From Candidatus Nomurabacteria bacterium (GTDB lineage Bacteria > Patescibacteriota > Minisyncoccia > Phycocordibacterales > UBA9973), in contig JAPLXS010000012.1 of NCBI GenBank assembly GCA_026395965.1, positions 115,977 through 179,976 on the forward strand: DNA of 64,000 nucleotides. Reading direction: 5' to 3'. Shown here one piece after another: positions 39,791-55,464 of this stretch. Position 1 is the first letter of the stretch, and each line of letters begins with the position of its first letter. The notes under the pieces are model-generated. The model was not told where the DNA came from. It saw only the letters and a program-made list of their open reading frames with translations, and did not search any database. The position numbers and the translations under genes were made by a program.

Positions 39791-40342
39791 ATGATATTAA
39801 ATTCACATACAATAATTTCACCTTATACTAATGAATGGAAGGATAAATTTAGCACTGAAAAAGACTTAATTCTTGATTTATTAAAGGATAAAATTCTTGC
39901 AATAGAACATATTGGAAGTACTTCTATTCCAGGACTTTCAGCTAAACCTATCGCTGATATAGCTATCATAGTGAATGAATTTGAACCAGCAGATGTATTT
40001 AGTAAAGATTTAAGTAAGTTGGGGTATAAATACAATTCATCTAGTACTGAAAGACATTTTTATATAAAAGGAGATCCTGAGAGTTTTCATTTGTCTATTT
40101 CCTTTGCTAATAGAGGGGGTTTTTGGGTTAGACAAATACTTTTCAGAGACTACTTGAGAAATAATCCTGAATCAAAGAAAGAGTATGAGGAATTAAAAAA
40201 GAAACTTTTAACTGAAGACCCTACTGGGGTAAATTCTTATTTTGCAGGAAAAGATGCTTTTGTTAAAAAGATATTAACTTTAGCAAATTGGAAAGAAAAT
40301 CAATTGTATTCAGATTACATGAAAGATAAAAAGTTAAATTAG
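39791..40342 (+). CDS. GrpB-family (UPF0157) nucleotidyltransferase-fold protein
   Basis: IEHIGSTSIPGLSAKPIADIAIIV is the GrpB signature. Confidence 0.7.
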   Translation: MILNSHTIISPYTNEWKDKFSTEKDLILDLLKDKILAIEHIGSTSIPGLSAKPIADIAIIVNEFEPADVFSKDLSKLGYKYNSSSTERHFYIKGDPESFHLSISFANRGGFWVRQILFRDYLRNNPESKKEYEELKKKLLTEDPTGVNSYFAGKDAFVKKILTLANWKENQLYSDYMKDKKLN

Positions 40343-41409
40343 TTCAGTTTAATTGTTTTATATTGTATAAATGTATCTTCTGGTTTAGATTGTTTATATA
40401 TAAAAATCTCTTTAACTTCCATTTTTGTATTTTTTATTTTAAGGAGTTCACTTTCGATATCTTTTTTTATTATATCTGAGTAGAAACCTTTTTTAAATTG
40501 GATTAATGTAGTATGTGGTATGTATTGTGAACCTTCAAAATATCTTGATTTTAACTCAGGACTACAATTTAGCTTATTGATTAATTTATTATGCATATCA
40601 ATTAAAATTTTTGAATCTGATTCTAGATATAAAACTGAATTGTTAAATACGCCAATATTTTTAAATGAAAGTCTAAAAGATTTATAATTTTTAATTATCT
40701 CTTCAAAATTTGCAATCCATAATTCATTGGGTAATAACCCCCCAGGTGCTTTTATCGTAATATGAGGTTCAGCAAGTAATAAAACTGAGTCCAGAGAGTA
40801 TATCTTATGAATATTTAATACTAAATCTTTAACTTGTCCCAATATTGGGATCGCGATGAAATATTTTTCCTGTATAATTTGATCTTCTGAAAAGTCTAAT
40901 ATTTTTTTAACAAATTCTGTTTTTCCTGAATTATAAACTTCACCTAGAGAGAGGTCCACGAATTCTTTTTCTGGTGTAATTTTTAAATTATTTTCTTTTA
41001 AATTTTGATATTCTAAAATATGCTTCGGGTTATTAATTAAATAATCACGAAAAAGAATCTGTCTTCTCCAGAATGAAAATTTTGGAGAAGACACAGAAAG
41101 ATGATATTCTACAGGGTCACCTTTTCTACAAAAAATTCTTTCAGCTGATGACATTTTTGGATAATATACATATCCTAATTCCTGTATAAGATTAATAATA
41201 GGATCAATGTTGTCTATCGAGTTTACAAGAACGGCTATATCTATAATAGGCTTGGCTGAGAGCCCAGGGATGGAAGTACTTCCAATATGCTCAATATTTA
41301 GAACATCATATTTATTCTCAAAAGTTTTTGTTATTTTTTCTTTTTCTATTTCAAACTTGGTTTTCCAAAATTCTTGATATTTTGTGAAAAATTGATGATT
41401 ATTTTCCAT
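40339..41409 (-). CDS. GrpB domain fused to a 2H phosphoesterase (LigT-like) domain
   Basis: N-terminal IEHIGSTSIPGLSAKPIIDIAVLV (GrpB). C-terminal half has two H-x-T-x motifs (HITI and HTTL) about 85 aa apart. Confidence 0.6.
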   Translation of the reverse strand: MENNHQFFTKYQEFWKTKFEIEKEKITKTFENKYDVLNIEHIGSTSIPGLSAKPIIDIAVLVNSIDNIDPIINLIQELGYVYYPKMSSAERIFCRKGDPVEYHLSVSSPKFSFWRRQILFRDYLINNPKHILEYQNLKENNLKITPEKEFVDLSLGEVYNSGKTEFVKKILDFSEDQIIQEKYFIAIPILGQVKDLVLNIHKIYSLDSVLLLAEPHITIKAPGGLLPNELWIANFEEIIKNYKSFRLSFKNIGVFNNSVLYLESDSKILIDMHNKLINKLNCSPELKSRYFEGSQYIPHTTLIQFKKGFYSDIIKKDIESELLKIKNTKMEVKEIFIYKQSKPEDTFIQYKTIKLN

Positions 41410-41412
41410 ATA

Positions 41413-42204
41413 TTATTCGTTTTTCTTATTTTTAAATGATAATAAATTACTGTCCTCAGAATATATAAAGGTTATGTTTGGATATTTTTTTAATGAATAT
41501 TCATAAACCGCTGTATTCTTATAATAAGAGTTAGGATACATTATAACTTTTTTACCCAACATTGTACTGGCAATAGCTATGTGCAATCTGTCTGTTCTTA
41601 TTTCTTCATATTTAGATATTTCTTCTAAAAAATCTTTAATTGGTTTTTTGCAATATCCATTTTTTGAAATATCAAAATTATTTTTAGGTTTTATTTTTTT
41701 TATAGATTCGCAATCTTCTCTAAAAGCATTCAAAATACCAGTCCCATTTTTTTTGTATGAATCAAAATTATTATAAAATGCACAATCGTGCCATATATAA
41801 ACTTGGCAATTTTTGGCATATTCTTTGACGAAATCATAACTAATCATATCTCTGCAAAATATCGTGACATTATTATTTAGGGTTTCTAGTAATGATTTTT
41901 GTTTTTCTCCGTTAATTGTATGTGGTAGTATTATAACTTCTTTGTATTGTTGATTTTTTTTAATCAAAAAATCTCTAACATCAAAATAATAATCTACAAA
42001 ATTACCACCTCCATCTATAAAAAGAACATTATTATGTACACCATCTTCGGTGTTGACATATTTTAAATTTATAGATAGTTCCTCCATTAATTTTAATGTT
42101 CCATGCCATATTAAAGAATCACCATAATTACCATTGAATCTATAAAAATCAACTTCTGTATTTGAGAATCTTTTTAAATATTTTTTTAAATCCATTTCTT
42201 TCAT
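41413..42204 (-). CDS. Polysaccharide pyruvyl transferase-like protein
   Basis: N-terminal GNYGDSLI and C-terminal TDRLHIAIAS resemble the pyruvyl-transferase family. Confidence 0.45.
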   Translation of the reverse strand: MKEMDLKKYLKRFSNTEVDFYRFNGNYGDSLIWHGTLKLMEELSINLKYVNTEDGVHNNVLFIDGGGNFVDYYFDVRDFLIKKNQQYKEVIILPHTINGEKQKSLLETLNNNVTIFCRDMISYDFVKEYAKNCQVYIWHDCAFYNNFDSYKKNGTGILNAFREDCESIKKIKPKNNFDISKNGYCKKPIKDFLEEISKYEEIRTDRLHIAIASTMLGKKVIMYPNSYYKNTAVYEYSLKKYPNITFIYSEDSNLLSFKNKKNE

Positions 42205-42213
42205 AAAATAATT

Positions 42214-43893
42214 TTATATATTGTTTTTAATAACCTCAAAGACAAAATTAGGTATAATTTTGTCAAAACAAAATTCTTCACAGCAATCAATTTCTTCTTG
42301 TCTCTTTGTGTGGTTACATAATATATGCCTATTTTTGTTGTATATAGATATGGTTTCTTTATTTAAATTTAGATATTTAGGATGAGTTGCCCCAAATATC
42401 ATAAAAGACTTCTTTTTAAAACTTTGAGCTATAATGGCAGGACCAGAATCATTACCTATAAAAAACTCACAATACTTTATTAAAGATAACATTTCTTTAA
42501 AACTATTGCTGTCATCTAGAAAAATTACCTTGACTCTAAGTTCTTCTATTATTAGAAATGAAAGATCTTTATAATTTTTAATACCCCAATTTCTTTTATT
42601 TTCTTGCCACGAGCTAGTGTTCGGAGCTATTAAAACATACTTTTCTTTCATTAATACATCATGTTTATCATTAAGGAAAGGTAAATTATTAATATTTTCA
42701 TCTATTCCTGCTGATTCAGCAAATCCCTGGATATAAGTTTTGTCATTTCGTGAATTTTCATAATTTAATTTTATTTTTATATCTACACCATCAAAATCAT
42801 TTATGTCTGAATAATTTATAATTCCATCATAAGCGGGAAGTAAGTTATTGATGTTATTTATATTTGTGGCTAAGTAAACTTTATTAACGTATTTATGTAA
42901 ATATCTAGCAATGGGTTCTGTCATTATTACATCACCAAGATTTCCTTTTCTTATTAGGCAGATGGAATTAATTTCCCTGTTTTTTATTTTATTAATAAAA
43001 TATGTTTTATACCAAAAGTTTAAAGTATTATCAGTTATTATTTTATTTTTTTCTATAACTGTTCCCCAAAATGTTCTATGCTCAGAAAACCACATTTCAT
43101 TTACTTTTTCTAAATTATCTTTAAATTCGATCACGTAATTTTTAATGGTTTGTATCCTCTCAAGCCAAGGAGAATTATCATTTGAACTAGAGTCTCTTTC
43201 ATATTTTGCTAGTTTTTTCCATTTTTCATAAATCATTTTTGCTGTATTCCTGAATTCATAATGTAGTAACTTGGCTTCGTTGTAAGGAATTATAAAAGGA
43301 TTACTTGTATATGTACCAAAAAAATCAGGATTATTTCTAGACTTCACATAATGTCCACCAACCACAATTTCGATATTCTTATGATTCTTGATTATAGCTT
43401 TTCTGAAATGGCCAAACTCTTGCCATGGTTTTTCTGGCCATGGTAAATAATAACAATTTGTATCTATTGGAGTAGCTTGTGCACGACTGCATTCAAATAA
43501 TGCGTTTGCCCATCCGATAGTTGCATACACGATACCAGCTTTTTCTAGTCGATCAATAAAAGCATGAATTGTCTTATCTTTCATACTTACAAATTCATCT
43601 GCATCCAGCATAAAAAACCAATCCACTTTAAAATTTTTATTTGCAAATGAAAGTAGTTTATTCGCAATTTTTGCATGGTCAAAAACAGGGTCTTCTTCTT
43701 TGATTACAATTATTCTTTTGTCCGCATTGTAGCTTTCCAGGATATCGTTTGTTTTATCTGTTGAACAATGGTTAGCTATAAAAATATAATCAAAACCAAT
43801 ACTAAGGTGATATGATATATTCAAGTCAATAAAACTCTCCTCATTTCTAACTACCATCAAAATAGCAATTTTATTATCTGTTTTGTTCTCCAT
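42214..43893 (-). CDS. Two-domain glycosyltransferase: GT2-like N-terminus plus GT9 (heptosyltransferase-like) C-terminus
   Basis: N-terminal MVVRNEESFIDLNISYH (GT2 family). C-terminal CLIRKGNLGDVIMTEPIARYL and FIGNDSGPAIIAQSF (GT9 signature). Confidence 0.55.
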   Translation of the reverse strand: MENKTDNKIAILMVVRNEESFIDLNISYHLSIGFDYIFIANHCSTDKTNDILESYNADKRIIVIKEEDPVFDHAKIANKLLSFANKNFKVDWFFMLDADEFVSMKDKTIHAFIDRLEKAGIVYATIGWANALFECSRAQATPIDTNCYYLPWPEKPWQEFGHFRKAIIKNHKNIEIVVGGHYVKSRNNPDFFGTYTSNPFIIPYNEAKLLHYEFRNTAKMIYEKWKKLAKYERDSSSNDNSPWLERIQTIKNYVIEFKDNLEKVNEMWFSEHRTFWGTVIEKNKIITDNTLNFWYKTYFINKIKNREINSICLIRKGNLGDVIMTEPIARYLHKYVNKVYLATNINNINNLLPAYDGIINYSDINDFDGVDIKIKLNYENSRNDKTYIQGFAESAGIDENINNLPFLNDKHDVLMKEKYVLIAPNTSSWQENKRNWGIKNYKDLSFLIIEELRVKVIFLDDSNSFKEMLSLIKYCEFFIGNDSGPAIIAQSFKKKSFMIFGATHPKYLNLNKETISIYNKNRHILCNHTKRQEEIDCCEEFCFDKIIPNFVFEVIKNNI

Positions 43894-44632
43894 AAATAAT
43901 TTTATTTAAGTCCAATTTAAAACGATAAAAAGCTGGATGTTCTGGCCATGTTGCATGAAAAAGATCTATGTTATCTAAAGATTTAATTTCTAAATTTTGG
44001 TGATCACTTATTAAAGCATATTTTTCTTTCGGTAAAATTAATAGACTCCCATTCCTTAGGTATGGAGTAAGAGCAATAGCTAAAGATCCTTGTTCGTCGT
44101 GGTGGGTTTGGTTCTTGTATGAAATATTTTTCAGCCACCACTCAAATTCTCGAGCAAGATCTGGTGTTATGTCATAATTTTTCTTTTGAATAAATAATCC
44201 TGCATTTATAAAAGGTGTATCGGGTGAAGCTTTAACTTTCATTGCTCCATGTTGCCAACTTTCACCTTCAAATTCATCTAGAATTGCGAAATGTAAACTA
44301 TCATCGTTTAAAAAATTTTCAATTTCTTTTGGGTATTTTACAAGAAATACATCTGAATCTATATAAAATTCTGTCTCATCAATGTTTATTCTAGATTTGG
44401 GACACCATTTCAACCAAGTTGCTTTTGATTTAACGTCAAACATGCTTTTATTTTCTGAAAAAAAAGATTTAACTTGAGCTATGTTTTTTAAGCTTACTGG
44501 TATTGATTCAACATTGTCGGTGTATAAAATATATTTATGAGAATCACCGTACCATCTTTTAAAAGAAGAAATGCTGTATTCTAACATTTCATAATTTTTA
44601 TTATCTCCCCATATTGACCATCTAAATATCAT
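43874..44632 (-). CDS. Hypothetical nucleotide-sugar transferase-like protein (DxD motif)
   Basis: YIDSDVFL DxD-like motif; 252 aa; overlaps the neighbouring genes as in an operon. Confidence 0.35.
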   Translation of the reverse strand: MIFRWSIWGDNKNYEMLEYSISSFKRWYGDSHKYILYTDNVESIPVSLKNIAQVKSFFSENKSMFDVKSKATWLKWCPKSRINIDETEFYIDSDVFLVKYPKEIENFLNDDSLHFAILDEFEGESWQHGAMKVKASPDTPFINAGLFIQKKNYDITPDLAREFEWWLKNISYKNQTHHDEQGSLAIALTPYLRNGSLLILPKEKYALISDHQNLEIKSLDNIDLFHATWPEHPAFYRFKLDLNKIIYGEQNR

Positions 44633-45903
44633 ATATTTTCTAGAAAATTAATTAAGTTATTTGAATAATCAAAATCTTTTACTGAATTTTCATTAAGTTT
44701 TGACATATTTTTCCGATTGTCTATTGTGGTGTTAGATGCAATATAAAGAGTTTCAGCAAACATATCTATATTTAAAGGATCTACAAGGTAGCATTCATTT
44801 TTTTCAAAAGAATCTTTGACCCCATCTTTATCACTGGCAACTATTACATAGTTCATATCCTTCATAAATAGTTTAGCTTCTATGGGGGTATGTGGATTTG
44901 GATCCATTAACGATGGTAAACAAACTATATCTGTATTTTTATATCTCAAAATAGATTTCCAAATATTTTGATTAAAGTTGTTTACAACAACTACCCGAGG
45001 TAAAACATTAGCCATTTCTATTAATTTTGAATAGTATTCATCTTCTCCTGAATTATTTGGGGCTTGTAAAATAAGGAAGTGATTGGACAGTTTGTTGTTT
45101 ATTATCGCCCATGCATCAATTAATTCTTTGAAACCTTTGGCGACCGAACATCTACCCCAACTAAATATAATTTTTGACCCACTGTTTAAGTTTTGATTTA
45201 AATAGCTAATATCTTCAAATTTTGTATTCATTTTTAATGACTCTGCGTATTCACTAAATGATAATCCATTTTTAAGATAATCATTCATTGTAAAGCGTAA
45301 TCCATAATTATCGAATAAATGCTCACCGAAACTATTTCCTGTAGCTATCACTCTAGAATTTTTATCTTGATTTATTAAAGTAAAACATTCTTTTTCTATG
45401 TGAACTCTCTCATCTCTCCATATTTTATTTCCAAATACATGATTTAATCCACTACTATGTGGTAAATAATAACATTTAAGATTTTTATTAATCACTTGAT
45501 CTTTAAATTTTGAAAATAACAAAAATGGAGTATCGTGTAACATTAATATGTTTTCTTCATCTTCTTTAAGAATGAGATTTAAACTTGTGGCAAGAGAAGC
45601 GGATACATAATTCCATTCTGGAAAACTTCTCCACATATCCCACTCTGTTAGCCCCTTTGTTCCATTACACAATGGAACCATAAAGCCTTGAGTTTTGTTT
45701 ACCAGAGAGAGGCTTTTACTGTAACTTTCTTTGCTGTATGCTTTGCCTTCAGGGCTAGCTGTAATATAGGCAATACTTACCCTTATATTATTATCTTTGG
45801 CGTAATTATTTAGTGTTGCAACAGTATTTTTAGCTATTGTTCCTACTCCACAATAAAAAGTAGATAGTCCATCATATGACGCTATAATAATATGCTTTTT
45901 CAT
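44629..45903 (-). CDS. Putative glycosyltransferase (GT-B-like)
   Basis: 424-aa first gene of the glycosyltransferase operon. Weak GT4-like C-terminal features. Confidence 0.35.
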   Translation of the reverse strand: MKKHIIIASYDGLSTFYCGVGTIAKNTVATLNNYAKDNNIRVSIAYITASPEGKAYSKESYSKSLSLVNKTQGFMVPLCNGTKGLTEWDMWRSFPEWNYVSASLATSLNLILKEDEENILMLHDTPFLLFSKFKDQVINKNLKCYYLPHSSGLNHVFGNKIWRDERVHIEKECFTLINQDKNSRVIATGNSFGEHLFDNYGLRFTMNDYLKNGLSFSEYAESLKMNTKFEDISYLNQNLNSGSKIIFSWGRCSVAKGFKELIDAWAIINNKLSNHFLILQAPNNSGEDEYYSKLIEMANVLPRVVVVNNFNQNIWKSILRYKNTDIVCLPSLMDPNPHTPIEAKLFMKDMNYVIVASDKDGVKDSFEKNECYLVDPLNIDMFAETLYIASNTTIDNRKNMSKLNENSVKDFDYSNNLINFLENI

Positions 45904-46082
45904 ATGCTATTTATAATAACACATAATTTATGACTTAGCAATTGTTAATTAAATAATAACACTTCGACCTTGTTATTAAAAGTTTATTGTATCGCAGACG
46001 CTTGAAATCATAGAGGAAGTTACCAACATGTTGCCAACAATTAATGCCTTAGCAAAAGATTAAATTTCTGGCATCATTAGGT

Positions 46083-47399
46083 ATGGAGACAACCAATATA
46101 GGTCTTATTTATAACCCAATAATAGCAACTGAAACAAGGATCAAATACGTGCTGTATGCACGTAAATCGACTGAATCTGACGAGCAACAAGCATTGTCGA
46201 TAGATTCTCAGATTAAGGAAATGACCACCATAGCAGAGCGTTTAAAGCTTAATGTAGTAGCAATCAAAAGAGAGTCTCATTCAGCTAAAGCTTCAGGACA
46301 AAGACCTGTATTTAAAGAATTATTAGAGGAGATTAGCAAAGGTATCTATAACGGAATCTTAACATGGGCACCAGATAGACTTTCAAGAAATGCGGGAGAT
46401 CTAGGTACTGTTGTTGATTTTATGGATGAAAAGAAATTAATTCATATACAAACCTTTGGACAAACTTTTTCTAATTCACCGAATGAAAAATTTCTTTTAA
46501 TGATTTTATATTCTCAGGCAAAACTTGAAAATGATAATAAAAGTATAAATGTTAAACGAGGTCTAAGAGCAAGAGTAGAGATGGGATTATGGCCATGTAA
46601 ACCTCCAACTGGTTACACTAAGTTTAAAAGAATGGATCAAAAGTGTGAAGCAATAATTGATCCAGTCCGTGCACCCATCATAAAACAAATATTTGAAAAA
46701 GTTGGTTATCAAAATTGGAGTGGCAGAAAAGTATTTCATTGGTTGAAGCAAGATATAGATTTTAAAACTGAAAATAATATACATCTTAGTTTAGGAAATT
46801 TATATGTAATAATATCAAATACTTTCTATTACGGAAGATTTGAATTTCCAAAAGGTTCAGGTAATTGGTATAACGGAGCACACGAGCCAATCATATCAAA
46901 AGAACTTTTTGATTTAGTTCAAACACAAATTAAAAGTCAGATAATGGAACCGAGATCAAAACAAAAAGAATTTGCTTTCACTAGAATTATGACTTGCGGA
47001 TTGTGTAGTTCTGGAATTACGGCAGATGAAAAATTTAAAAAGCACAAAGACGGAACAGTGAGCCGTTACGTATATTATAAATGTACTAGAGTAAAAGATT
47101 CTAAATGTAAAAGTGGTTACATAAATGAAGATGACTTAATTAGACAGCTTCAAAATCTTATTGATGATCTTGAGATTCAAACAGTCCCAATGAGAGAGAA
47201 AATAACAAGTGAAGTTAAACGATTTAAGAGTTTTGAAAAAATGTTGTTAGGAAGAAAAAGCCCTGTAATTATTAAAGATATAGATATTCGTAATTATGCT
47301 AAGTTTATACTCCAAGAAGGATCAATGGACGAAAAACGAGAGTTTTTAAGGTGTTTAAATAGTAAAATTTTTTTAAATGGGAAAAAAGTAATTATTTAA
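46083..47399 (+). CDS. Large serine recombinase (resolvase/invertase catalytic domain, recombinase domain and zinc ribbon)
   Basis: N-terminal YARKSTESDEQQALSIDSQ with the catalytic Ser. Later ...APDRLSRN. C-terminal Cys cluster CGLCSSG...YYKC. 438 aa. Confidence 0.8.
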   Translation: METTNIGLIYNPIIATETRIKYVLYARKSTESDEQQALSIDSQIKEMTTIAERLKLNVVAIKRESHSAKASGQRPVFKELLEEISKGIYNGILTWAPDRLSRNAGDLGTVVDFMDEKKLIHIQTFGQTFSNSPNEKFLLMILYSQAKLENDNKSINVKRGLRARVEMGLWPCKPPTGYTKFKRMDQKCEAIIDPVRAPIIKQIFEKVGYQNWSGRKVFHWLKQDIDFKTENNIHLSLGNLYVIISNTFYYGRFEFPKGSGNWYNGAHEPIISKELFDLVQTQIKSQIMEPRSKQKEFAFTRIMTCGLCSSGITADEKFKKHKDGTVSRYVYYKCTRVKDSKCKSGYINEDDLIRQLQNLIDDLEIQTVPMREKITSEVKRFKSFEKMLLGRKSPVIIKDIDIRNYAKFILQEGSMDEKREFLRCLNSKIFLNGKKVII

Positions 47400-50300
47400 T
47401 AATTGCTTCTATTAATTTATAAGAGGTGGATTCTAGTATTTCTTTTATTTTATCTTTTGGAGTAATTAATAATTGTTCTTTTGTTTTTATTCCTGCTTTG
47501 ACTAATGCTAAATATTCTTCACGAGACATTTCAATATTTATATTTAAAAGACCAAAGCATTCTGATGGAATTCCTGTTTCTAGACTCTTAAGTAAATCTT
47601 CAAATATTTTATCTTCTAACATTTCGCCAGGAAAAATAATTGTAGCAATTTTATGAACTGACCTAAGTTGGAATCTAGTAAAATCAGCAAAGGTTCTTAT
47701 GTTGCCATAAGCGATATTACCCATATAAGGATTGTTTGATTTGAACGTTTCTTCAATATCTGGGGTTGGAATACCATTAATCCAATCAAACAGAACTGAT
47801 GCTTTTTTACATCGAGCATAATATTTAAATTCATCGCCATTTGTAAATCTTTGTAGTAATCTAACAATTTCAGGTCCAAAACGTTGAGATGCCTCTCTAG
47901 GTCGCTTAGATTCAGATGTCCCTTTTTTAAACATAGGGGTATATGTATTGTCTGATTCTGGAAGTATTTGTACTATAGCCATTAATTCATTTGCACTCAA
48001 AGAAGGGTTTTTATAATCCTTTAATAATTCAACAAGACGTAATGCTGATCTAAAAGACAATACTGATTCTCCGCATACCTTACCTAAAATAGTTAAATGA
48101 ACTAAACCATTTTCTTCTTCTGCAATACCCAATCTGACCATTTCATTATATAAATTTTCAAGCTCTTGTCTCATTTTCTTTTCCCACTCCGGATCTTTTT
48201 TATTAGCGACATAACCACCATACGTATTTGCTAGAAGATTAAATAGGTCATTTTTATGAACATCTTTTACTTGAACTAAAAGTTTTATTACCCAAGTATC
48301 AAGATCTGAAATATCAAAAGATGATATTAATGGTTCAGGTTTGCCTAAGACATATTTGTTGAACAAAAAATCTGGACTGCTTCCATTATCTGCTAAAATA
48401 ATTGCTTTTCCTTTTTCATTAAATCCTACACGACCAGCTCGTCCAGCCATATTTTTATATTCAGCAATAGTAAATATTCGTCCATTTTCACCAACAAATT
48501 CTTGTTCCGCTAAAATTGCAGTAGAAGCGGGTGTATTAATCCCCGCAGCAACTGTGGTTGTTGCTACAAGAACTTTAATTTTACTATTCGTATCACGGAA
48601 TACGCGTTCTACAATTCGTCGTTCTTCTCTGCTTAGGTTTGAATTATGAAATGCTGTTCCACCCTCGAAGCAAGTTCTAAGTTTAGAAGAAGTAGAAGAT
48701 GATGCATATCTAGGAAGCATATTAACTTCATCTAAAGCTGGAGGTAATCCAATATCAGTAGCAAGATAATTAGCAGCTCCTTCTGTTAATCCTTTTTGAT
48801 TACGAAAAATTATAATTTTTTCTCCCTTTTCAACTAGACTTTTTACAAGTGGAACAATCATATCTTGTTGACTTGGCTTGTCCTTACGTTGAACAATTTC
48901 ATGATACGGAACTAGCTGTTCCATCTTTATTTCTCCATTTTCTGAAAGATATTTAAATTGACCGTTTCTACCCATAACTCCTTCTATTAATGGAATTGGC
49001 CTTTTAGTCGTTAAAAGTTTTCTACATCCTAACCAATCTTCAAAATTATTACTATCACCAATAACTGCTGATAAAATAACTAATTGAGGATTAACACCTC
49101 GTGTTCTTACGGCAATAAGATTCGTTAACAGTAATTCTACAGATATTCCTCTGTTTAAGTCAGTGATAAATTGGGCCTCATCAAGAACTACTAAACCAAT
49201 TTGATTTAAAACAGAAGGTAATGAAATACTTAAATTTAAAAACATTTCATATGTAAAAAGTGCAATATCATACTTACCCTTAATAAATTCATTATTTTGA
49301 TCTAAATAATCTCCTGTACAACGTATTACTCTATAACCAAGTTTATTTTGATACAGATCAATAAATTGATCATATTTTTCATTAACTAATGCTTTGTAGG
49401 GAAAGAGAAAAACTGATTTTTTCCCCATGGAAACAGCCTTAGCACTGGCTAATTCACCTACAAAAGTTTTTCCAGAACTAGTCGGTGCAATTACAAGGAC
49501 TGATTCGTTCTCTAAAATTCTATATTCATTTATTGCTTCAAGTTGTAAATCATTTAATCCGTTTTTAAATAATTGGCCCCATTCTTTTGTTAATTCTTCA
49601 GGGATCCCGAATTTATTTAGCTCTTCAATTTTATTTGAAATCTTTACTCCTCTTTTTTGAGGAAAGGCATTAAAATAATTTTTTCCAGGTATAAGTTTGG
49701 GAAGTGTTAATCCTCCTGTGACATGATTTAATAAAACTGGAGTTTGAATTACTCCTATTCTACTTGCTTCAGCTCTTACAATATCCATTATGTCTCCCAT
49801 TGCCGACAACATGTTTATAGTCTCATCTTTAGATAAAGTTAGTATATCAATAAGAGCTTTTGTTAAAATTCCATGTCCTGTTGACGGTAATTCATATGAG
49901 GGTTCATCAAAATTTGAGGCAGCAATAATAAATCTTCCTTCTCCAGACAATGAATCAAGGGGGTTACCTATATTACGAGGGATAGGACTATCTTCCAAAA
50001 CTTTAGCTGGAGCACCTCCACTAAAACAACAGTCAAGTATACACAAAATATTTTTTGCTTTACTTTGCTTGAAAAGATCAGCAATCCCTTGCATGGGGAA
50101 AGTAGTTTTTTCTATGTTTATGATTTCTGTATCAAAACCAGTTATTCTGTGATCTTTAGACCCATGTCCAGAATAGAAAAAAATAATGGTATCATTTTGA
50201 GTTGCAATAGATAAGCTTTCTTCTAATGCTTTTTTAATATTATAAATATTGGCGTTAGTTCCAGTAATAATTTCACCAATAATTTCTTTATCTAACGTAT

Positions 50301-50409
50301 CAATAAAAAGATTTCCTAATGCTAATGCATCATTTTTTGCTCCACTTAAGTCTCGTATTGATGGATCTTTGTATTTATCTACTCCAATGAATTTAGCTAT
50401 TATTGCCAT
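47392..50409 (-). CDS. Caspase-like (peptidase C14/CHAT-like) domain fused to a Ski2/Hel308-like SF2 helicase; candidate defence protein
   Basis: Caspase His in IIFFYSGHG (~aa 82) and Cys in CILDCCFSGG (~aa 127). Helicase motif I VLVIAPTSSGKT (~308), motif II VVLDEAQF (~410), motif III SAV, motif VI NMAGRAGRVG. 1005 aa. Confidence 0.75.
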   Translation of the reverse strand: MAIIAKFIGVDKYKDPSIRDLSGAKNDALALGNLFIDTLDKEIIGEIITGTNANIYNIKKALEESLSIATQNDTIIFFYSGHGSKDHRITGFDTEIINIEKTTFPMQGIADLFKQSKAKNILCILDCCFSGGAPAKVLEDSPIPRNIGNPLDSLSGEGRFIIAASNFDEPSYELPSTGHGILTKALIDILTLSKDETINMLSAMGDIMDIVRAEASRIGVIQTPVLLNHVTGGLTLPKLIPGKNYFNAFPQKRGVKISNKIEELNKFGIPEELTKEWGQLFKNGLNDLQLEAINEYRILENESVLVIAPTSSGKTFVGELASAKAVSMGKKSVFLFPYKALVNEKYDQFIDLYQNKLGYRVIRCTGDYLDQNNEFIKGKYDIALFTYEMFLNLSISLPSVLNQIGLVVLDEAQFITDLNRGISVELLLTNLIAVRTRGVNPQLVILSAVIGDSNNFEDWLGCRKLLTTKRPIPLIEGVMGRNGQFKYLSENGEIKMEQLVPYHEIVQRKDKPSQQDMIVPLVKSLVEKGEKIIIFRNQKGLTEGAANYLATDIGLPPALDEVNMLPRYASSSTSSKLRTCFEGGTAFHNSNLSREERRIVERVFRDTNSKIKVLVATTTVAAGINTPASTAILAEQEFVGENGRIFTIAEYKNMAGRAGRVGFNEKGKAIILADNGSSPDFLFNKYVLGKPEPLISSFDISDLDTWVIKLLVQVKDVHKNDLFNLLANTYGGYVANKKDPEWEKKMRQELENLYNEMVRLGIAEEENGLVHLTILGKVCGESVLSFRSALRLVELLKDYKNPSLSANELMAIVQILPESDNTYTPMFKKGTSESKRPREASQRFGPEIVRLLQRFTNGDEFKYYARCKKASVLFDWINGIPTPDIEETFKSNNPYMGNIAYGNIRTFADFTRFQLRSVHKIATIIFPGEMLEDKIFEDLLKSLETGIPSECFGLLNINIEMSREEYLALVKAGIKTKEQLLITPKDKIKEILESTSYKLIEAIIK

Positions 50410-50500
50410 AATAAATAAATATTAGCACTAATAGCTATTAGATGATAGTTATAATAACAAAAAACATATTTTCATATATGCTTCTCGTGCTAGCACGTGA

Positions 50501-50575
50501 TGGTGACCCTACCGGGAATCGAACCCGGATTACCGGCTTGAAAAGCCGATGTCCTAACCGTTAGACGATAAGGCC
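50501..50575 (-). tRNA. tRNA-Glu (anticodon TTC), CCA encoded
   Basis: Reverse complement GGCCTTA-TC-GTCT-AACGGTTAG-GACA-TCGGC-TTTTCAA-GCCGG-TAAT-CCGGG-TTCGATT-CCCGG-TAGGGTC-A-CCA. Confidence 0.85.
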
Positions 50576-50609
50576 AATATTAAAACATTCTTTTAAAATG
50601 CAAATAACT

Positions 50610-50668
50610 TTACTGTACGGCTTTTACGCCGATGTCCGCTGTATCTAACTTGGTTAGACAACAAGGCC
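50610..50668 (-). pseudogene. Degenerate tRNA-Glu-like 5' fragment (no T-arm or acceptor 3' strand)
   Basis: Reverse complement GGCCTTGTTGTCTAACCAAGTTAGATACAGCGGACATCGGCGTAAAAGCCG aligns with the 5' half of the adjacent tRNA-Glu (GGCCTTATCGTCTAACGGTTAGGACATCGGC...). Confidence 0.55.
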
Positions 50669-50762
50669 AATAAATACCGAATCAGTATAGCATTTTTATC
50701 AAAAAAATCAAATATTCAATATTTTTTACTTATAATATATAAGTATTTTAATATCATTAAAC

Positions 50763-50792
50763 TTGACAAATAGGCGTAGTATGTGATATAAT
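50763..50792 (+). promoter_or_regulatory. Consensus sigma70-type promoter (TTGACA, 18 nt, TATAAT) upstream of the 50956 gene
   Basis: cTTGACAaataggcgtagtatgtgaTATAATa. Confidence 0.5.
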
Positions 50793-50955
50793 ACAAGATA
50801 GATAAGTAGTTTTTTGACAAAATATTGTTATTTATATTGGTTTGTCCATTTTAGTGGTCAATCACCCTTTATGTATGCCATTTACTATTAAAATGGATAA
50901 ACCAATAACTAATTAATAACAAAAATAAAAAAAACAGCCATGGAGGGCTGACAAA

Positions 50956-51906
50956 ATGAAAAAAAATCAAGTAATACCAAACACTAAGACACCAACTGTG
51001 GTCTATTTAATTCTATTAATGATAATATTAATATTCGGCACAATTTTTTATTCCTTATTTGGAATATGGGGGATAATTATTTTCTTTATTATTTTAGCGT
51101 ACTTTACGTCACTATTTTTAGAAGATGATATTCCTATGTTCCATGCACTAATAATGAGAGGTGGCACAGGAAAAATGCGAGTACTATTTCCAGGAGTTTT
51201 TAATTTTAAATTACCCTGGGAACAAGCACACGAAGAAAACGGTGCTAAGAAATACATCGATCTTAGGGTTGAAACTGGTGAAATATGTAATGATACATAT
51301 CCATCAAAAGACACCTTAATGAAAACACAATATGTGTATTCATTAAGACCTGATCTTAGAAAAAGTAATAACGGAACTATTGAAGAAAATATTATAAAAT
51401 TTTCTTCATTTGAGATTTCTGCAATTAGAGAGAAGGCTAAAGCATTATTTTCAATGTTACTTTCTGATTGGTATGCGAACAAGAGTGGTGATGATTTAAA
51501 AAATAAATCATTAATCAACAAAAAACTTTTTGGAACAAAAGACAAGCCATCTAATGCTGTCACCGAATTTGAAAAAGAACATGGCGTTGAAATTTCTGTT
51601 CGACTTGTCGACAGTGATTTTAATGACAATGTTCAAGAATACCGTGATAAAATCGCTGGTGCAAAAACCATCAATGAAATACGAAATATTTTAATGAAGG
51701 ACGACATTCACGAAGATGGAACTGTAGCAAAAGGAGTTAGTCCTGAAGTCGCAGATCAAATGATTAAATTTATGGAGTTTGGCAACTACTCAGAAAAAGT
51801 TGTAAATCTAAACATCAAAGCACCAGACCTTGGAAATCTACAAAATGTAAATTTATTAGGTGGAACAGGAATCACTGGTGATGAAAAAAAAGAAGGTAAA
51901 AAATGA
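50956..51906 (+). CDS. Membrane protein, possibly SPFH/band-7-like
   Basis: Two N-terminal TM helices, then ...IMRGGTGKMRVLFPGVFNFKLPW, which resembles the start of SPFH domains. Lys/Gly-rich tail. Confidence 0.35.
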   Translation: MKKNQVIPNTKTPTVVYLILLMIILIFGTIFYSLFGIWGIIIFFIILAYFTSLFLEDDIPMFHALIMRGGTGKMRVLFPGVFNFKLPWEQAHEENGAKKYIDLRVETGEICNDTYPSKDTLMKTQYVYSLRPDLRKSNNGTIEENIIKFSSFEISAIREKAKALFSMLLSDWYANKSGDDLKNKSLINKKLFGTKDKPSNAVTEFEKEHGVEISVRLVDSDFNDNVQEYRDKIAGAKTINEIRNILMKDDIHEDGTVAKGVSPEVADQMIKFMEFGNYSEKVVNLNIKAPDLGNLQNVNLLGGTGITGDEKKEGKK

Positions 51907-52422: not shown

Positions 52423-52758
52423 CTATTGACCAATGGTTATATCGGTACTATTTACTTTGATATTGGTAACACCTAAAGTATTTAAAAGTATATTCATAAT
52501 CCCAAATACTGATATCATTATAAACATTCCAATGACTCCCCATATCATGAGTGATTTACTTGATTTTCGTATCTCTTCATTGTCTGGAGATAAAAGATAT
52601 CTAGTAAGCCCATAAAGGAAGTAAACAACAGCAAGAGCAAATAAAAGTACTATAAGAGGGTTTATAATAACCTTGTCTACTGCTTTCATTAGAGTTGCTA
52701 CACTTGCCTCTGCTGTTGGGATAATTCCAAAATTCATATAATTATTAACAATTTGCAC
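52423..52758 (-). CDS. T4SS-pilin-like small 2-TM protein (paralogue 1)
   Basis: 111 aa with a signal/TM helix, a short loop and a second TM helix. Paralogous to the next three genes (shared ...W(G)(V/L)I..F....SV/A...G motifs). Confidence 0.55.
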   Translation of the reverse strand: MQIVNNYMNFGIIPTAEASVATLMKAVDKVIINPLIVLLFALAVVYFLYGLTRYLLSPDNEEIRKSSKSLMIWGVIGMFIMISVFGIMNILLNTLGVTNIKVNSTDITIGQ

Positions 52759-53113
52759 CCATGTTGTTTTGAGAAGTAGGAATACAAGGTGTTATATTTT
52801 GACCTGTTACATTTCCTATTCCAAATGTATTTTTAACTACTGCAATAATTCCCCAGAAAGCTACGATAACAAACAAACCAATAAGACCATTTATGATCTT
52901 TGTACGGCCCATTTTCTTTGCTTCTTCATCAGATGAAGTCATAAATGAGATAACTCCCCAGATAAAGTAAACAACAGCTACAGTTATAAGTGCAGGAACG
53001 ATGTAGTTTAAGTAACCTACAAGCTGTGCGATAATACCACCTATTTGATCTGCTGCAAAAGCCATAAAAGGAACTGAACTCAAAACCAAACCAAAAGAAA
53101 TAATTTTTTTCAT
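52745..53113 (-). CDS. T4SS-pilin-like small 2-TM protein (paralogue 2)
   Basis: 122 aa. Signal peptide MKKIISFGLVLSSVPFMAFA followed by two TM helices, as in the TrbC/VirB2-type pilin topology. Confidence 0.55.
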   Translation of the reverse strand: MKKIISFGLVLSSVPFMAFAADQIGGIIAQLVGYLNYIVPALITVAVVYFIWGVISFMTSSDEEAKKMGRTKIINGLIGLFVIVAFWGIIAVVKNTFGIGNVTGQNITPCIPTSQNNMGANC

Positions 53114-53256
53114 ATTTTTAAAAACTAATTTTAAATCTAATAAACTTTAATAATATAACAATACTTTGTTAAATCCTATCGACATAGGAAATAAAAAATC
53201 AAATGTATAATTGTATTATATCAACAAGACGTGATATACACAATATTTTACTACTC

Positions 53257-53601
53257 TTACTGTGGAAGATTTGGAATAACAGCACTACCTCCGGGTATGA
53301 ATGTTGAAGACAATATTCCCACCAATCCCCAAATACTTACCATTACAAACAAAGTAATCAATCCCCATATCATATAACTCTTTCCAGCTTTTCTCTTTTC
53401 TTCATTCTCTGGATTTAGGAAAAATTGAATAATCCCATAGATGAAAGCTGTGACAGCTAAAGACATCAAAAGAGGTACCACTGCATTCATGAGTGTACAG
53501 GTAAAGTAATTTATAAAACTTGTTAGGTTTGTGATTCCTCCCCCACAAGATATACCTGCTACACTATTTGTACTTGCTGCATAAGCAATCATTGTATTCA
53601 T
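53257..53601 (-). CDS. T4SS-pilin-like small 2-TM protein (paralogue 3)
   Basis: 114 aa with the same architecture. Confidence 0.55.
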   Translation of the reverse strand: MNTMIAYAASTNSVAGISCGGGITNLTSFINYFTCTLMNAVVPLLMSLAVTAFIYGIIQFFLNPENEEKRKAGKSYMIWGLITLFVMVSIWGLVGILSSTFIPGGSAVIPNLPQ

Positions 53602-53610
53602 ATAATTATA

Positions 53611-54102
53611 CTATGCTGAACTTTTAATTTCGTCGACCGTTTTACCAATAGCATTTGCTATTACAAATGCGCCAAGCAGAAGTGCGGCACCTATCAGGGT
53701 ATACATCAGGGCATTTTTTGCTTTTGAAATTTCTTCGGGGTTACCTTGAGCTTTCACAAAAAGGAATCCTGTATAAATGATAGCAAGGACAACGATAGGT
53801 ATTCCAACAATAAGAACAATGTTTATAACTGCTTCAATAAACTTTGGTATAGAATCTATATTCTTACCTAATGGATTTGTGATTGTATTTTTAATACCTG
53901 TTATATTTGCTGATCCTGTTTCACTACCAACTTGCCCTCCTGGACCACCACCAACTTGCCCTCCTGGACCACTTTCTACTCCTCCAAGAGCCCAAACTTT
54001 AGGTATTATTAATATAAATGCAAATACAAAAACAAAACTATACTTTAAAATATTTGATAAAATGCTATATTTTTTTTTCTTAAAAATTTTCATATGATTC
54101 AT
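53611..54102 (-). CDS. T4SS-pilin-like 2-TM protein with a Gly-rich tandem repeat (paralogue 4)
   Basis: 163 aa. GPGGQVGGGPGGQVG is encoded by a 21-nt direct DNA repeat at ~53930-53985. Same two-TM topology. Confidence 0.55.
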   Translation of the reverse strand: MNHMKIFKKKKYSILSNILKYSFVFVFAFILIIPKVWALGGVESGPGGQVGGGPGGQVGSETGSANITGIKNTITNPLGKNIDSIPKFIEAVINIVLIVGIPIVVLAIIYTGFLFVKAQGNPEEISKAKNALMYTLIGAALLLGAFVIANAIGKTVDEIKSSA

Positions 54103-54135
54103 TAAAAAATGCTGTGCATAATTTATTATTAATAA

Positions 54136-55464
54136 TTAACCCAAAAATGTAGGACCAGTAAAACCTAAGCTGAAAAGAATAGTCTTTACTATAAGCCAAG
54201 CAGCTAGAGCTATAACATATCCAATGACTGCATTTTTCAATATCTCCTTTGCGTGTTTTATATTTTCAGAACTTCCCATATCACTAAGATACAACCATCC
54301 GACATAGATTATAATAAGTGCAAACAATGGAGTAGCAAGTGTAACAAGTAAGAAATTAATAACTTTATTGATTATTGCTATTACCATATTAAAATCACAA
54401 GCATTTGAATAAACTCCATTTACAATATTGCCAGTATTACATTCGGGGACTAAACCATGCCATTTTACTGAACTAGAAGAATTACTAATACTACCAGAAC
54501 CTGTATTAGAAGTACCATTTTGATTATTGTTATCGGTACCAGTACCAGACCCTGAAGCAGAAATTACTTTAAATGGTGTGTCACTAAGTGCTGTGGTACC
54601 ATCTATCATCAAAAGAGATACAACTCCAGTGGTAGCACCAGCTGGTACATTGACTGTTATCTCTGTGGGAATACTAGTCTTAGTAATTGCTTTTTTAGTG
54701 TTAAAAAATACATTATTTAAACCTGTTGATCCAGTAAGATATTCCCCTGAAATAGTCACAAGATCTCCTACTTTTCCTTCTTTAGGAGAAATATCAAATA
54801 TTTTTGAAAAATTACCAGTGCTCGCATCTGTTGTAATCTTAAAGTTAATATCACTAATAGCAGGTGTATCACTACTTGTTGTTACGGTAATAACTCCATC
54901 ATTTGCACCAGATGGTACTTTGACTATTATTTGTGTATCGCTACTACTTACTACTTCTCCTTTTTTTGAAAAAGGAAAATATACATTTTGTAAAGTATTA
55001 AAATTTGATCCTTTTATAGTGACGACATCACCCACTTTGCCTTTTATAGGAGACACACTTGTTATTTTGGGAATTGTATTTGTACTGGATCCTTGAGTTA
55101 AATCTGAGTTTGCTGTAGATGTATCACCGACAGTAAAGTCAATAACTCCTATTTCAGTAGAACTATTGTTTGAATAATCCAATACATAACCTTGGTATTT
55201 TGCACCAGTTATCAAAGAATCAAATGTATGTTCAGCGATTCCACTGCTGTCTGTTTTTACTCCGATAACAATATTGTCTAAATTAGATCCAATTTTTCTA
55301 ACACCAAGACCGATTGATTTTGAAAACAAACCACTGTCTACATTTAGGGTTACAGAATTGGACTGAGGGTTTTTTATTTTAATAACAACATTTGCATAAG
55401 CACTATTTATATTTAAACATAGTAATGCTAAGAAAAAAATATATCCGAAAAGTTTTTTATTCAT
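54136..55464 (-). CDS. Secreted protein with three IPT/TIG repeats fused to a C-terminal pilin-like 2-TM domain
   Basis: Signal peptide. Three repeats of the pattern ITSVSPIKGKVGDVVTIKGSNF / ISPKEGKVGDLVTISGEYL. The C-terminal ~90 aa resemble the neighbouring pilin-like proteins. Confidence 0.55.
   Translation of the reverse strand: MNKKLFGYIFFLALLCLNINSAYANVVIKIKNPQSNSVTLNVDSGLFSKSIGLGVRKIGSNLDNIVIGVKTDSSGIAEHTFDSLITGAKYQGYVLDYSNNSSTEIGVIDFTVGDTSTANSDLTQGSSTNTIPKITSVSPIKGKVGDVVTIKGSNFNTLQNVYFPFSKKGEVVSSSDTQIIVKVPSGANDGVITVTTSSDTPAISDINFKITTDASTGNFSKIFDISPKEGKVGDLVTISGEYLTGSTGLNNVFFNTKKAITKTSIPTEITVNVPAGATTGVVSLLMIDGTTALSDTPFKVISASGSGTGTDNNNQNGTSNTGSGSISNSSSSVKWHGLVPECNTGNIVNGVYSNACDFNMVIAIINKVINFLLVTLATPLFALIIIYVGWLYLSDMGSSENIKHAKEILKNAVIGYVIALAAWLIVKTILFSLGFTGPTFLG

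Follow-up and report, generated by a model that had tools for sequence, protein, structure and literature searches.

A caspase-like protease fused to a Hel308-type helicase: a candidate one-gene immune system carried on bacterial mobile elements

We analysed a 64,000-nucleotide stretch of contig JAPLXS010000012.1 from Candidatus Nomurabacteria bacterium (the window), which contains a gene that joins a caspase-like protease and a Hel308-type helicase in one polypeptide (the caspase-helicase gene; Table 1). The first-pass annotation of this DNA had placed one 1005-aa open reading frame (ORF) with two modules at this position but gave no strand; translation bears this out and puts the gene on the minus strand. 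The product is 100% identical to a database protein entered as 'MAG: caspase family protein [Candidatus Nomurabacteria bacterium]' (MAG, metagenome-assembled genome). A large serine recombinase gene is convergent with the caspase-helicase gene, overlapping its 3' end by 8 nt, and is likely the mobility gene of a small island that is bounded on the other side by a tRNA-Glu gene.

Table 1. Features of the caspase-helicase locus (positions in the window; residues are those of the caspase-helicase protein)
Feature	Position	Strand	Basis
Large serine recombinase, 438 aa	46083..47399	+	Pfam Resolvase, Recombinase and Zn_ribbon_recom; PHROG integrase 3.6e-60
Caspase-helicase gene	47392..50409	-	ATG start, 1005 aa, stop codon included; ORF list and translation
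Helix-hairpin-helix domain (Hel308 domain 5), residues ~931-1005	47395..47619	-	Aligns to domain 5 of 2va8, 2zj2 and 9b15
Ratchet domain (Hel308 domain 4) including W876, residues ~801-930	47620..48009	-	Weak Pfam Helicase_dom4_arc match, residues 846-927
Winged-helix domain (Hel308 domain 3), residues ~699-800	48010..48315	-	Profile alignment to 9b15; Foldseek
RecA-like domain 2, residues ~479-698	48316..48975	-	Motifs IV-VI, YKNMAGRAGR 651-660; Pfam Helicase_C
RecA-like domain 1, residues ~263-478	48976..49623	-	Motif I APTSSGKT (K314), II DEAQ (410-413), III SAV; Pfam DEAD
Protease-helicase linker, residues 241-262 (22 residues)	49624..49689	-	Separates the Pfam C14 match from the Hel308 profile match, which begins at 263-267
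Peptidase_C14 (caspase/metacaspase-like) domain, residues 1-240	49690..50409	-	Pfam PF00656, AlphaFold2 model and Foldseek
Loop after the catalytic Cys, residues 131-147	49969..50019	-	Low model confidence, conserved in close relatives
Catalytic Cys128 codon (LD-C-C128-F-S-G)	50026..50028	-	Invariant; aligns with AtMC4 Cys139 and TbMCA2 Cys213
Catalytic His82 codon (YSGHG)	50164..50166	-	Invariant in 54 representatives; aligns with metacaspase YSGHG
tRNA-Glu(UUC), island boundary	50501..50575	-	ARAGORN; Rfam tRNA 63.2 bits; 91 nt upstream of the start codon of the caspase-helicase gene

The protease and helicase domains

The Peptidase_C14 model PF00656 matches residues 5-227 with 60.3 bits against a cutoff of 21.4 (E = 2.8e-16), and the PADLOC 'caspase' model matches the protease part at 1.3e-16. 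The nearest NCBIfam model is caspase_w_EACC1 (NF047832; 1e-24), whose cutoff of 140 bits is not reached (87 bits). A search with a profile of this N-terminal domain by itself ranks metacaspases first: AtMC4 (4e-10), TbMCA2 (4e-8) and Yca1 (5e-8), with MALT1 at 1e-3. The domain was modelled with AlphaFold2 (AF2) from 40 homologues, giving a predicted local distance difference test score (pLDDT) of 89 and a predicted template modelling score (pTM) of 0.88. The best 50 matches of this model to the PDB in Foldseek are all caspase-family proteases: the MALT1 paracaspase comes first (E = 8e-13, TMq 0.69), followed by metacaspases 9 and 4, Geobacter GSU0716, caspase-9 and Yca1. As modelled, the domain is a complete single-chain caspase-hemoglobinase fold. 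The objection that it might be a flavodoxin-like non-protease was addressed by profile search, AF2 model and Foldseek, and fails because these best 50 matches are all of the caspase family. The first-pass annotation had called the domain C14/CHAT-like; the C14 part agrees with the Pfam match, but the CHAT family is not listed in the Pfam scan.

The catalytic residues align with those of metacaspases. L-D126-C127-C128-F-S-G aligns with metacaspase D-S-C-H-S-G, and H82 and C128 match the His and Cys of AtMC4, TbMCA2 and Yca1. A dyad of H82 and C127 had been proposed from the motifs IIFFYSGHG and ILDCCFSGG. The motifs and H82 are as described, but the catalytic Cys is C128, because it is this residue that aligns with the metacaspase catalytic Cys; C127 is unconserved in the wider family. 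Additionally, the family segment L-x-x-A-x-R/N-D27-A aligns with metacaspase 'L-x-G-C-x-N-D', and D126 aligns with the Asp of 'DxCHSG' in TbMCA2 and AtMC4 (the TbMCA2 chain numbering in the profile alignment is offset by a 20-residue tag). We take D27 and D126 to be the positions of the S1-pocket residues Asp95 and Asp211 of T. brucei MCA2. Because D27 and D126 match this acidic S1 pair of metacaspases, the protease is predicted to cleave after Arg or Lys, not Asp.

The sole long low-confidence stretch in the protease domain lies directly after the catalytic Cys, with a pLDDT of <50 at residues 131-136 and 138-147 of the full-length model. Conservation among the 40 homologues is at least 90% at A133, P134, A135, V137, S141, P142 and R145, and the loop is unconserved across the wider family. 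It may serve in regulation or autoprocessing.

In the helicase part, Pfam DEAD matches residues 287-451 (80.9 bits) and Helicase_C residues 583-662 (35.3 bits). The NCBIfam Hel308 profiles align over residues 267-1005 (E = 2e-79), but their equivalog cutoffs are missed (268, 240, 233 and 203 bits against 887, 1200, 1216 and 891). Because the margin is wide, the helicase is not an orthologue of the repair helicase Hel308; it belongs to a distinct clade of the superfamily. A PDB search with the 40-homologue profile gives 2va8 (3e-77), 2zj2 (7e-75) and 9b15 (1e-67, residues 287-994), together with 2p6r; the Hel308/Hjm matches range from 3e-77 to 2e-66. Next come the Pol-theta helicase domain and Brr2 (~1e-46), and HamB of the Hachiman defence system scores 1.6e-19. 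Foldseek with the full-length AF2 model (pLDDT 82) gives the same picture: whole Hel308/Hjm chains match at ~1e-32 with a target TM of ~0.8, the Pol-theta helicase domain comes next and HamB ranks 43rd.

The residue-level alignment to Hel308 structures 2va8, 2zj2 and 9b15 runs on through the winged-helix, ratchet and helix-hairpin-helix (HhH) domains. The segment '...ailfdWikg...' aligns with Hel308 '...LCLKDWIEE...', so that W876 falls on the Trp of the 'KDWIEE' helix. The helicase is thus a complete, five-domain enzyme of the Hel308/Ski2-like superfamily 2 (SF2) type, and the Peptidase_C14, DEAD/Helicase_C and Hel308 assignments are all far beyond chance. A Ski2/Hel308-type SF2 helicase with a complete core had been recognised in the first-pass annotation, and profiles, Foldseek and residue alignments agree with this. 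The quoted motifs APTSSGKT (K314), VLDEAQ (D410/E411/Q413) and LSAV are present, but QMAGRAGR is not the reading of motif VI (Table 1). Nor is the C-terminal region of ~300 aa a separate module as had been described: it consists of Hel308 domains 3-5, because the Hel308 alignments continue through it. HhH domain 5 is autoinhibitory in archaeal Hel308, according to Richards et al. (2008) as cited in PMC12278908. A bacterial clade of this type is noteworthy because Hel308 has been described as missing from bacteria (PMC12278908).

Family, spread and gene neighbourhoods

An indexed protein search returned 1687 matches at E <= 1e-10. The best 120 of these are all ~1000-1020 aa long, at least 53% identical and have the identical domain set. 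When 1.84 billion representatives were searched exhaustively, the end-to-end matches made up at least 53 clusters at 50% identity, with identities as low as 28%. Conservation was measured in 54 cluster representatives (26-53% identity to the window protein) and in the closer set of 40 homologues. In the 54 representatives D27, H82, C128, G313, K314, D410, E411, G656, R657, G659 and R660 are invariant, as are G946 and R963 of the HhH domain, and conservation is at least 90% at D37, D126, E173 and W876. Among the 40 closer homologues, T315, Q413, S447, A448 and V449 never vary. The invariance of both active sites across the 54 representatives suggests that both enzymes are maintained.

The named sources belong to eight phyla: Patescibacteria, Bacteroidota (Niastella, Chitinophaga, Hymenobacter, Fibrella and Chondrinema), Cyanobacteriota (Acaryochloris), Pseudomonadota (Ralstonia, Bradyrhizobium, Agrobacterium, Rhizobium, Bosea and Rhodopseudomonas), Nitrospirota, Planctomycetota, Bacillota and Actinomycetota (Streptomyces). 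The copy from Nomurabacteria, which belong to the candidate phyla radiation (CPR), and that from Niastella (Bacteroidota) are 73% identical, and this indicates horizontal transfer. There are full-length copies on 17 plasmid records from five phyla, including eight conjugative and four mobilisable plasmids, and all of them are annotated merely as 'DEAD/DEAH box helicase'. A full-length copy is absent from 50,697 phage records, and a scan of 2.9 million viral contigs found one relative, which lacks the caspase domain; on these two results a phage origin was rejected. Loci were collected by a single-protein scan of genome contigs, which gave two, supplemented by exact-protein look-ups, plasmid records and a metagenome scan. 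A disrupted copy is present on a Parcubacteria MAG contig labelled 'viral-cat' (L002, 2039-3303), where residues 1-66 and 128-499 are in separate pieces and the remainder is missing; there is a serine-recombinase fragment 4 kb from it.

Defence or mobility genes are found, as a qualitative statement, within 10 kb of the homologues at essentially all informative loci. The Chitinophaga locus has a broken serine recombinase and tRNA-Asp, and the Niastella copy is in a conjugative element with TraG, ArdC-N, three MPTase-PolyVal genes, NYN and resolvases. At other loci there are type I restriction-modification (R-M) genes with Abi_C, Peptidase_M78 and TIR (L005); a serine recombinase, a primase-like gene, DUF3800 and tRNA-Tyr (L007); AbiH with Bacteroidetes conjugation genes (L008); PLD, HTH and conjugative type IV secretion system (T4SS) genes with tRNA-Thr (L009); and a tyrosine integrase with Fic (L010). 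A pPIWI-RE module, PD-(D/E)xK, NB-ARC/TPR and AbiEii genes accompany the copies at L012 and on a Streptomyces plasmid. NB-ARC and TIR genes are present on the Acaryochloris conjugative plasmid, and the Agrobacterium plasmid carries a UvrD-type helicase and a multiubiquitin/ThiF/DUF6527 module.

A further sample of context comprised 113 ORFs within 5 kb at 16 metagenomic loci. In these ORFs PADLOC recognised a DRT reverse transcriptase (3e-261), a type I restriction endonuclease (2e-228), IetS (8e-207), PDC-S24 (1e-193) and HamC (6e-97), as well as AbiEi/AbiEii, type IIG R-M and, in three ORFs, PDC-S54; Pfam added HEPN_AbiV, TIR, RES, Multi_ubiq and Nmad2. Qualitatively, then, mobility and defence genes, not housekeeping genes, predominate around the homologues. 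The first-pass annotation had proposed looking for homologues in defence islands and had named uniformly housekeeping contexts as the alternative; the homologues are on mobile elements and in defence islands instead.

Partner genes were sought by all-vs-all BLAST and hidden Markov model searches of the ORFs within 1.5-4 kb at 14 and then 37 loci. No neighbouring ORF family occurs at more than 3 of the 37 loci, consistent with the single-gene status suggested beforehand. A multi-gene system was rejected on the grounds that small neighbours are sub-clade-specific, with at most three loci each. These small same-strand ORFs lie 4-33 nt upstream at L016, L036 and L052 and 10-180 nt upstream at L031, L041 and L043, and there is a downstream pair at L045-L047. 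They encode a 74-78 aa protein (annotated DUF2158 in Agrobacterium), a protein of ~200 aa and a pair of proteins of 150-250 aa, and could be lineage-specific accessory or regulatory components.

The recombinases beside homologues are 23-35% identical to that of the window, in comparison with 68-80% among the helicase genes. Co-inheritance with the recombinase was rejected for this reason, and the low identity of the adjacent recombinases suggests that the gene is cargo on different elements. The tRNA at the island edge is tRNA-Asp, -Tyr or -Thr at other loci.

There are also relatives without the caspase domain. These are 880-970 aa long, match the helicase part only, at ~30% identity and from their residue 2 on, and have ~180-220 extra C-terminal residues. 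Four such tails (P0219, P0232, P0239 and P0244) were tested; Mrr_cat, of an Mrr-like PD-(D/E)xK nuclease, matches two of the four (P0239, 22.1 bits against a cutoff of 21; P0232, 20.8 bits), and by eye a motif G-x-PD ... GRP(D/G)F is common to all four. Another relative has an OmpR-type winged helix instead. P0159 has an alternative N-terminus of 245 aa; a guess by eye that this was a nucleotide cyclase was dropped, as Pfam and PDB gave no match even at E <= 10. In the sister group (including L013) PADLOC recognises HamB-like helicase cores only, and the helicase-Mrr group is itself apparently uncharacterised. Alternative terminal domains on a conserved helicase, as in defence systems, moderately suggest that the Hel308-type helicase is a reusable sensor chassis on which effectors may be swapped.

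The island in the window and its flanks

The first-pass annotation had described a tRNA-associated island beside a serine recombinase. Both features are present, and the same setting recurs at other loci with different tRNAs and non-orthologous recombinases. GC content is ~30% throughout and a compositional anomaly is absent. Around the caspase-helicase gene, Rfam picked up the tRNA only, and the promoter scan gave no clear promoter dedicated to the gene.

The recombinase and caspase-helicase pair lies exactly between the two copies (45904-45931 and 50442-50469) of an AT-rich, 28-nt direct repeat with 79% identity. An att-like reading of this repeat was set aside, as it is one of 32 similar chance-level repeat families in 7 kb of 30% GC DNA; long direct repeats are not produced by serine integrases. 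Directly upstream of the intact tRNA-Glu(UUC), at ~50600-50672 on the minus strand, there is a degenerate 5' half of a tRNA-Glu (acceptor, D arm and anticodon arm), which shares a 20-nt repeat of 90% identity with the real gene and is called by neither ARAGORN nor Rfam. It may be the scar of an earlier integration or duplication.

Beyond the tRNA, within 50763-50907 on the plus strand, the leader of ORF 50956-51906 has a promoter that fits the sigma-70 consensus perfectly (12/12; TTGACA-18 nt-TATAAT, upstream TG). After this promoter comes a long, imperfect hairpin whose 28-nt arms (50835-50862 and 50880-50907) are 86% complementary. The 316-aa product of this ORF has no match in Pfam, NCBIfam, PHROG or PADLOC, and Rfam gives weak miRNA-like hairpin matches on the leader. 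Further on (52423-55464, minus strand) each of five consecutive genes has a T4SS_pilin (TrbC/VirB2-like) domain, one of them with IPT/TIG domains too; at L009 there are likewise T4SS pilin genes a few kb from the caspase-helicase gene. To the left of the island (40339-45903, minus strand) is a polysaccharide-synthesis cluster with GT4 and GT2/GT9 glycosyltransferases and a pyruvyl transferase. It includes a fusion of GrpB and a 2',5' RNA ligase-like domain (40339-41409), which adjoins a second GrpB gene (39791-40342).

Relation to known systems and proposed function

The first-pass annotation did not recognise this architecture as a described system, and this holds in PADLOC-DB 2.0.0, which recognises separate domains only, and in the searchable literature, where no functional description was found for caspase, metacaspase or Peptidase_C14 with Hel308/Ski2-like helicase and antiphage. 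A 2012 census recorded helicase domains in 12 prokaryotic metacaspases, as a count only (PMC3501461).

The closest parallel in mode of action is Hachiman, in which the Hel308-like HamB senses DNA and controls a nuclease and whose variant HamMAB has a trypsin-like protease (Tuck et al., Cell 2024, PMC12278908; Science 2025, PMC12799240). Both have a Ski2/Hel308-like SF2 helicase and occur in defence islands; in Hachiman the helicase is a sensor of DNA state and its ATPase controls the effector, a protease in HamMAB. The HamB models are also the best PADLOC matches to the helicase (1.4e-32), covering the core only (~residues 289-670). The window helicase, however, is far nearer to archaeal Hel308 than to HamB (3e-77 against 1.6e-19) and keeps the full five-domain layout. 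HamA/DUF1837 and the pro-nuclease HamM were not found in the window, and adjacent ORF families are unconserved in the 37 loci. The protease that would be the effector is of the caspase family and is fused N-terminally in cis; it is neither a nuclease nor a trypsin-like enzyme. The gene would work most like Hachiman, yet fails Hachiman membership.

Archaeal and metazoan Hel308 (Hjm, HELQ) and the Pol-theta helicase domain share the five-domain architecture and all motifs (best matches 2va8, 2zj2, 9b15, 2p6r and 5a9f), but the present family is bacterial and mobile, has an N-terminal protease, falls far below the equivalog cutoffs and has a defence or mobile genetic element (MGE) context instead of a replication or repair one. 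Metacaspases and MALT1 (Peptidase_C14B) share the fold, the dyad and the acidic S1 pair with the protease, and MALT1 also the compact single chain; sequence identity is only 13-18% and, unlike them, the present protease has no p10 extension, Ca-binding 280-loop region or death or Ig domains, and a helicase is attached. Hna, type II Mokosh and the helicase-Mrr relatives likewise combine a helicase and an effector domain in one polypeptide. In contrast with Hna and Mokosh, the effector here is a protease instead of a nuclease and the helicase belongs to a Hel308-type clade; neither Hna nor Mokosh models are among the best 25 of 36 PADLOC matches.

The caspase of type IV Thoeris was reportedly described by Rousset and colleagues in Science in 2025. 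Like the bacterial caspase-like immune effectors of type IV Thoeris, Canu (CanA, PMC12799240) and the gasdermin-activating and EACC1-associated groups, the window protein has a Peptidase_C14-family protease with an intact His/Cys dyad. Control of those effectors comes from partner proteins, from STAND/NTPase modules or from a nucleotide signal that a TIR protein makes; several of them also have a substrate gene of their own. In the window protein, control would fall to the fused helicase, and no conserved TIR, gasdermin or pro-nuclease partner was found in the 37 loci. Hachiman, AVAST and Canu have protease-nuclease pairs, unlike this gene. It is not type IV Thoeris, as TIR occurs within 10 kb at few loci only, is never adjacent or conserved and is absent from the window. 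It is not an Avs/STAND-caspase, as the NTPase is an SF2 helicase and the NB-ARC proteins are separate neighbours in three loci. Neither is it a CHAT protease of the Craspase Csx29 type: Pfam listed no CHAT, and there are no cas genes among the neighbours examined (a CRISPR array search was not run). By analogy with these systems it would be classed as a previously uncharacterised helicase-gated effector system with an effector of the caspase family.

Taken together, the conserved active sites, the single-gene status, the defence and MGE context and the horizontal spread single out this large, functionally uncharacterised family as a strong candidate for an immune system of a new, one-gene kind. 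We give an even chance to the reading that it is a stand-alone mobile conflict gene, directed against phages or MGEs, whose helicase senses DNA and thereby controls the caspase-like, Arg/Lys-specific protease in the same chain. The C-terminal 740 residues, a 3'-to-5' DNA helicase, would sense invader DNA in the form of 3' single-stranded tails, forks, or branched or damaged DNA, a trigger drawn from analogy with Hel308 and HamB, which recognise such DNA (PMC12278908). DNA binding and ATP hydrolysis would then lift autoinhibition, juxtapose two protease domains, or both, and so switch the protease on. MALT1 is activated by dimerisation or induced proximity, and activation here may be of this kind. 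The metacaspase/paracaspase-like protease would cut host or invader proteins in trans after Arg or Lys, and cleavage would halt growth or infection, most likely via abortive infection. That the family is an unnamed, widespread one-gene immune system, the first single-chain helicase-to-caspase switch and the first broad bacterial Hel308-type clade with a swappable sensor chassis is a claim we put just short of even. In a bolder extension of this claim, the helicase would move 3'-to-5' toward proteins attached to invader DNA, such as relaxases and terminal proteins, and the protease may act on them.

Several observations weigh against an immune function gated by the helicase. The full-length model, on which the proposed coupling of helicase and protease would have to be judged, has a pTM of only 0.64. 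Beyond the recombinase and tRNA, the neighbourhood in the window has no defence gene recognised in Pfam and PADLOC scans, and no substrate or pro-toxin gene linked to the caspase-helicase gene was found. The link to defence is qualitative guilt by association throughout. Some copies have the anti-restriction genes ArdC and MPTase-PolyVal as neighbours within a conjugative element, which fits a function that benefits the element too. Finally, Hel308/Hjm and metazoan Hel308 are repair helicases, and the fold is compatible with a repair role.

The gene might act without killing its host. The helicase would move 3'-to-5' on invading single-stranded DNA while the protease strips bound or covalently attached proteins, such as conjugative relaxases or phage terminal proteins at 5' ends, single-stranded DNA-binding proteins or recombinases, and plasmid establishment or phage replication would be blocked. 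A covalent fusion through a short linker of 22 residues, with no partner or pro-toxin gene, fits an enzyme that acts at the position of the helicase; conjugative elements and plasmids, where competition between elements is expected, often carry the gene or have it close by, and the polarity of Hel308 is 3'-to-5' (PMC12278908). We infer this scheme in its entirety, however, and the sequence features are equally compatible with the abortive model. Characterised bacterial caspase-like immune effectors mostly process toxins or cleave broadly, resulting in growth arrest, which also counts against targeted proteolysis, and we consider it unlikely. Service to the mobile element, either through proteolysis of host immune proteins on incoming DNA (anti-defence) or as a stabilisation or competition module, seems improbable. 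Consistent with it, the Niastella copy adjoins ArdC-N and the three anti-restriction-type MPTase-PolyVal genes in its conjugative element, the family is present on the eight conjugative and four mobilisable plasmids, the copy on Acaryochloris pREB8 adjoins partition genes, and there are recombinase-linked mini-islands in the window and at L003, L007 and L037. Many copies are nevertheless surrounded by genuine defence genes in islands on chromosomes or plasmids, and the gene is absent from the phage genomes searched. Location on MGEs does not discriminate between the two, because defence systems themselves commonly ride on mobile elements.

A part in DNA repair or fork maintenance, in which the helicase would bring the protease to stalled forks or DNA-protein crosslinks by analogy with protease-assisted crosslink repair in eukaryotes, is distinctly improbable. 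The nearest solved relatives are indeed repair helicases (Hel308/Hjm and the Pol-theta helicase domain), Hel308/HELQ works at damaged forks (PMC12278908), and strong conservation of both active sites would be expected of any enzymatic role. In contrast, the distribution is patchy with clear horizontal transfer, close copies are found in different phyla and on plasmids and integrated elements, a conserved housekeeping neighbourhood was never seen, defence and mobility genes dominate among the neighbours, and the best Hel308 equivalog score is 268 bits where 887 are called for. It is very improbable indeed that the protease acts in cis only, with self-processing at loop 131-147 or the linker maturing or releasing the helicase and no substrates in trans. 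The loop is in the right place, directly after the catalytic Cys, is conserved with low model confidence and has a near-invariant Arg145; caspases and type II metacaspases have an autoprocessing linker at that position. It is unconserved in the wider family, however, and in its compact single-chain form the domain is like MALT1 and the type I metacaspases, which need no linker cleavage. A 240-residue protease used solely for self-cleavage would also be uneconomical in comparison with known effector caspases.

If the caspase-helicase gene is a defence system, it is a compact one-gene module of 3 kb in which a helicase that senses nucleic acid is tied directly to proteolysis of the caspase type. 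This logic is known from adaptor cascades in eukaryotic innate immunity and, in bacteria, so far from multi-gene systems only, such as Hachiman with its trypsin-like protease. The gene also occurs in CPR/Patescibacteria with their tiny genomes, and the hypothesis is directly testable because the gene is present in cultivable Agrobacterium, Ralstonia, Bradyrhizobium, Streptomyces and Chitinophaga. If the proposal is true, Hel308-type helicases, thought to be missing from bacteria, would be present there as mobile immune sensors, and the proposed evolutionary link between Hel308 and HamB would be strengthened. The family would then offer a tractable system in which to find the DNA structure that marks an invader and the targets of bacterial caspases.

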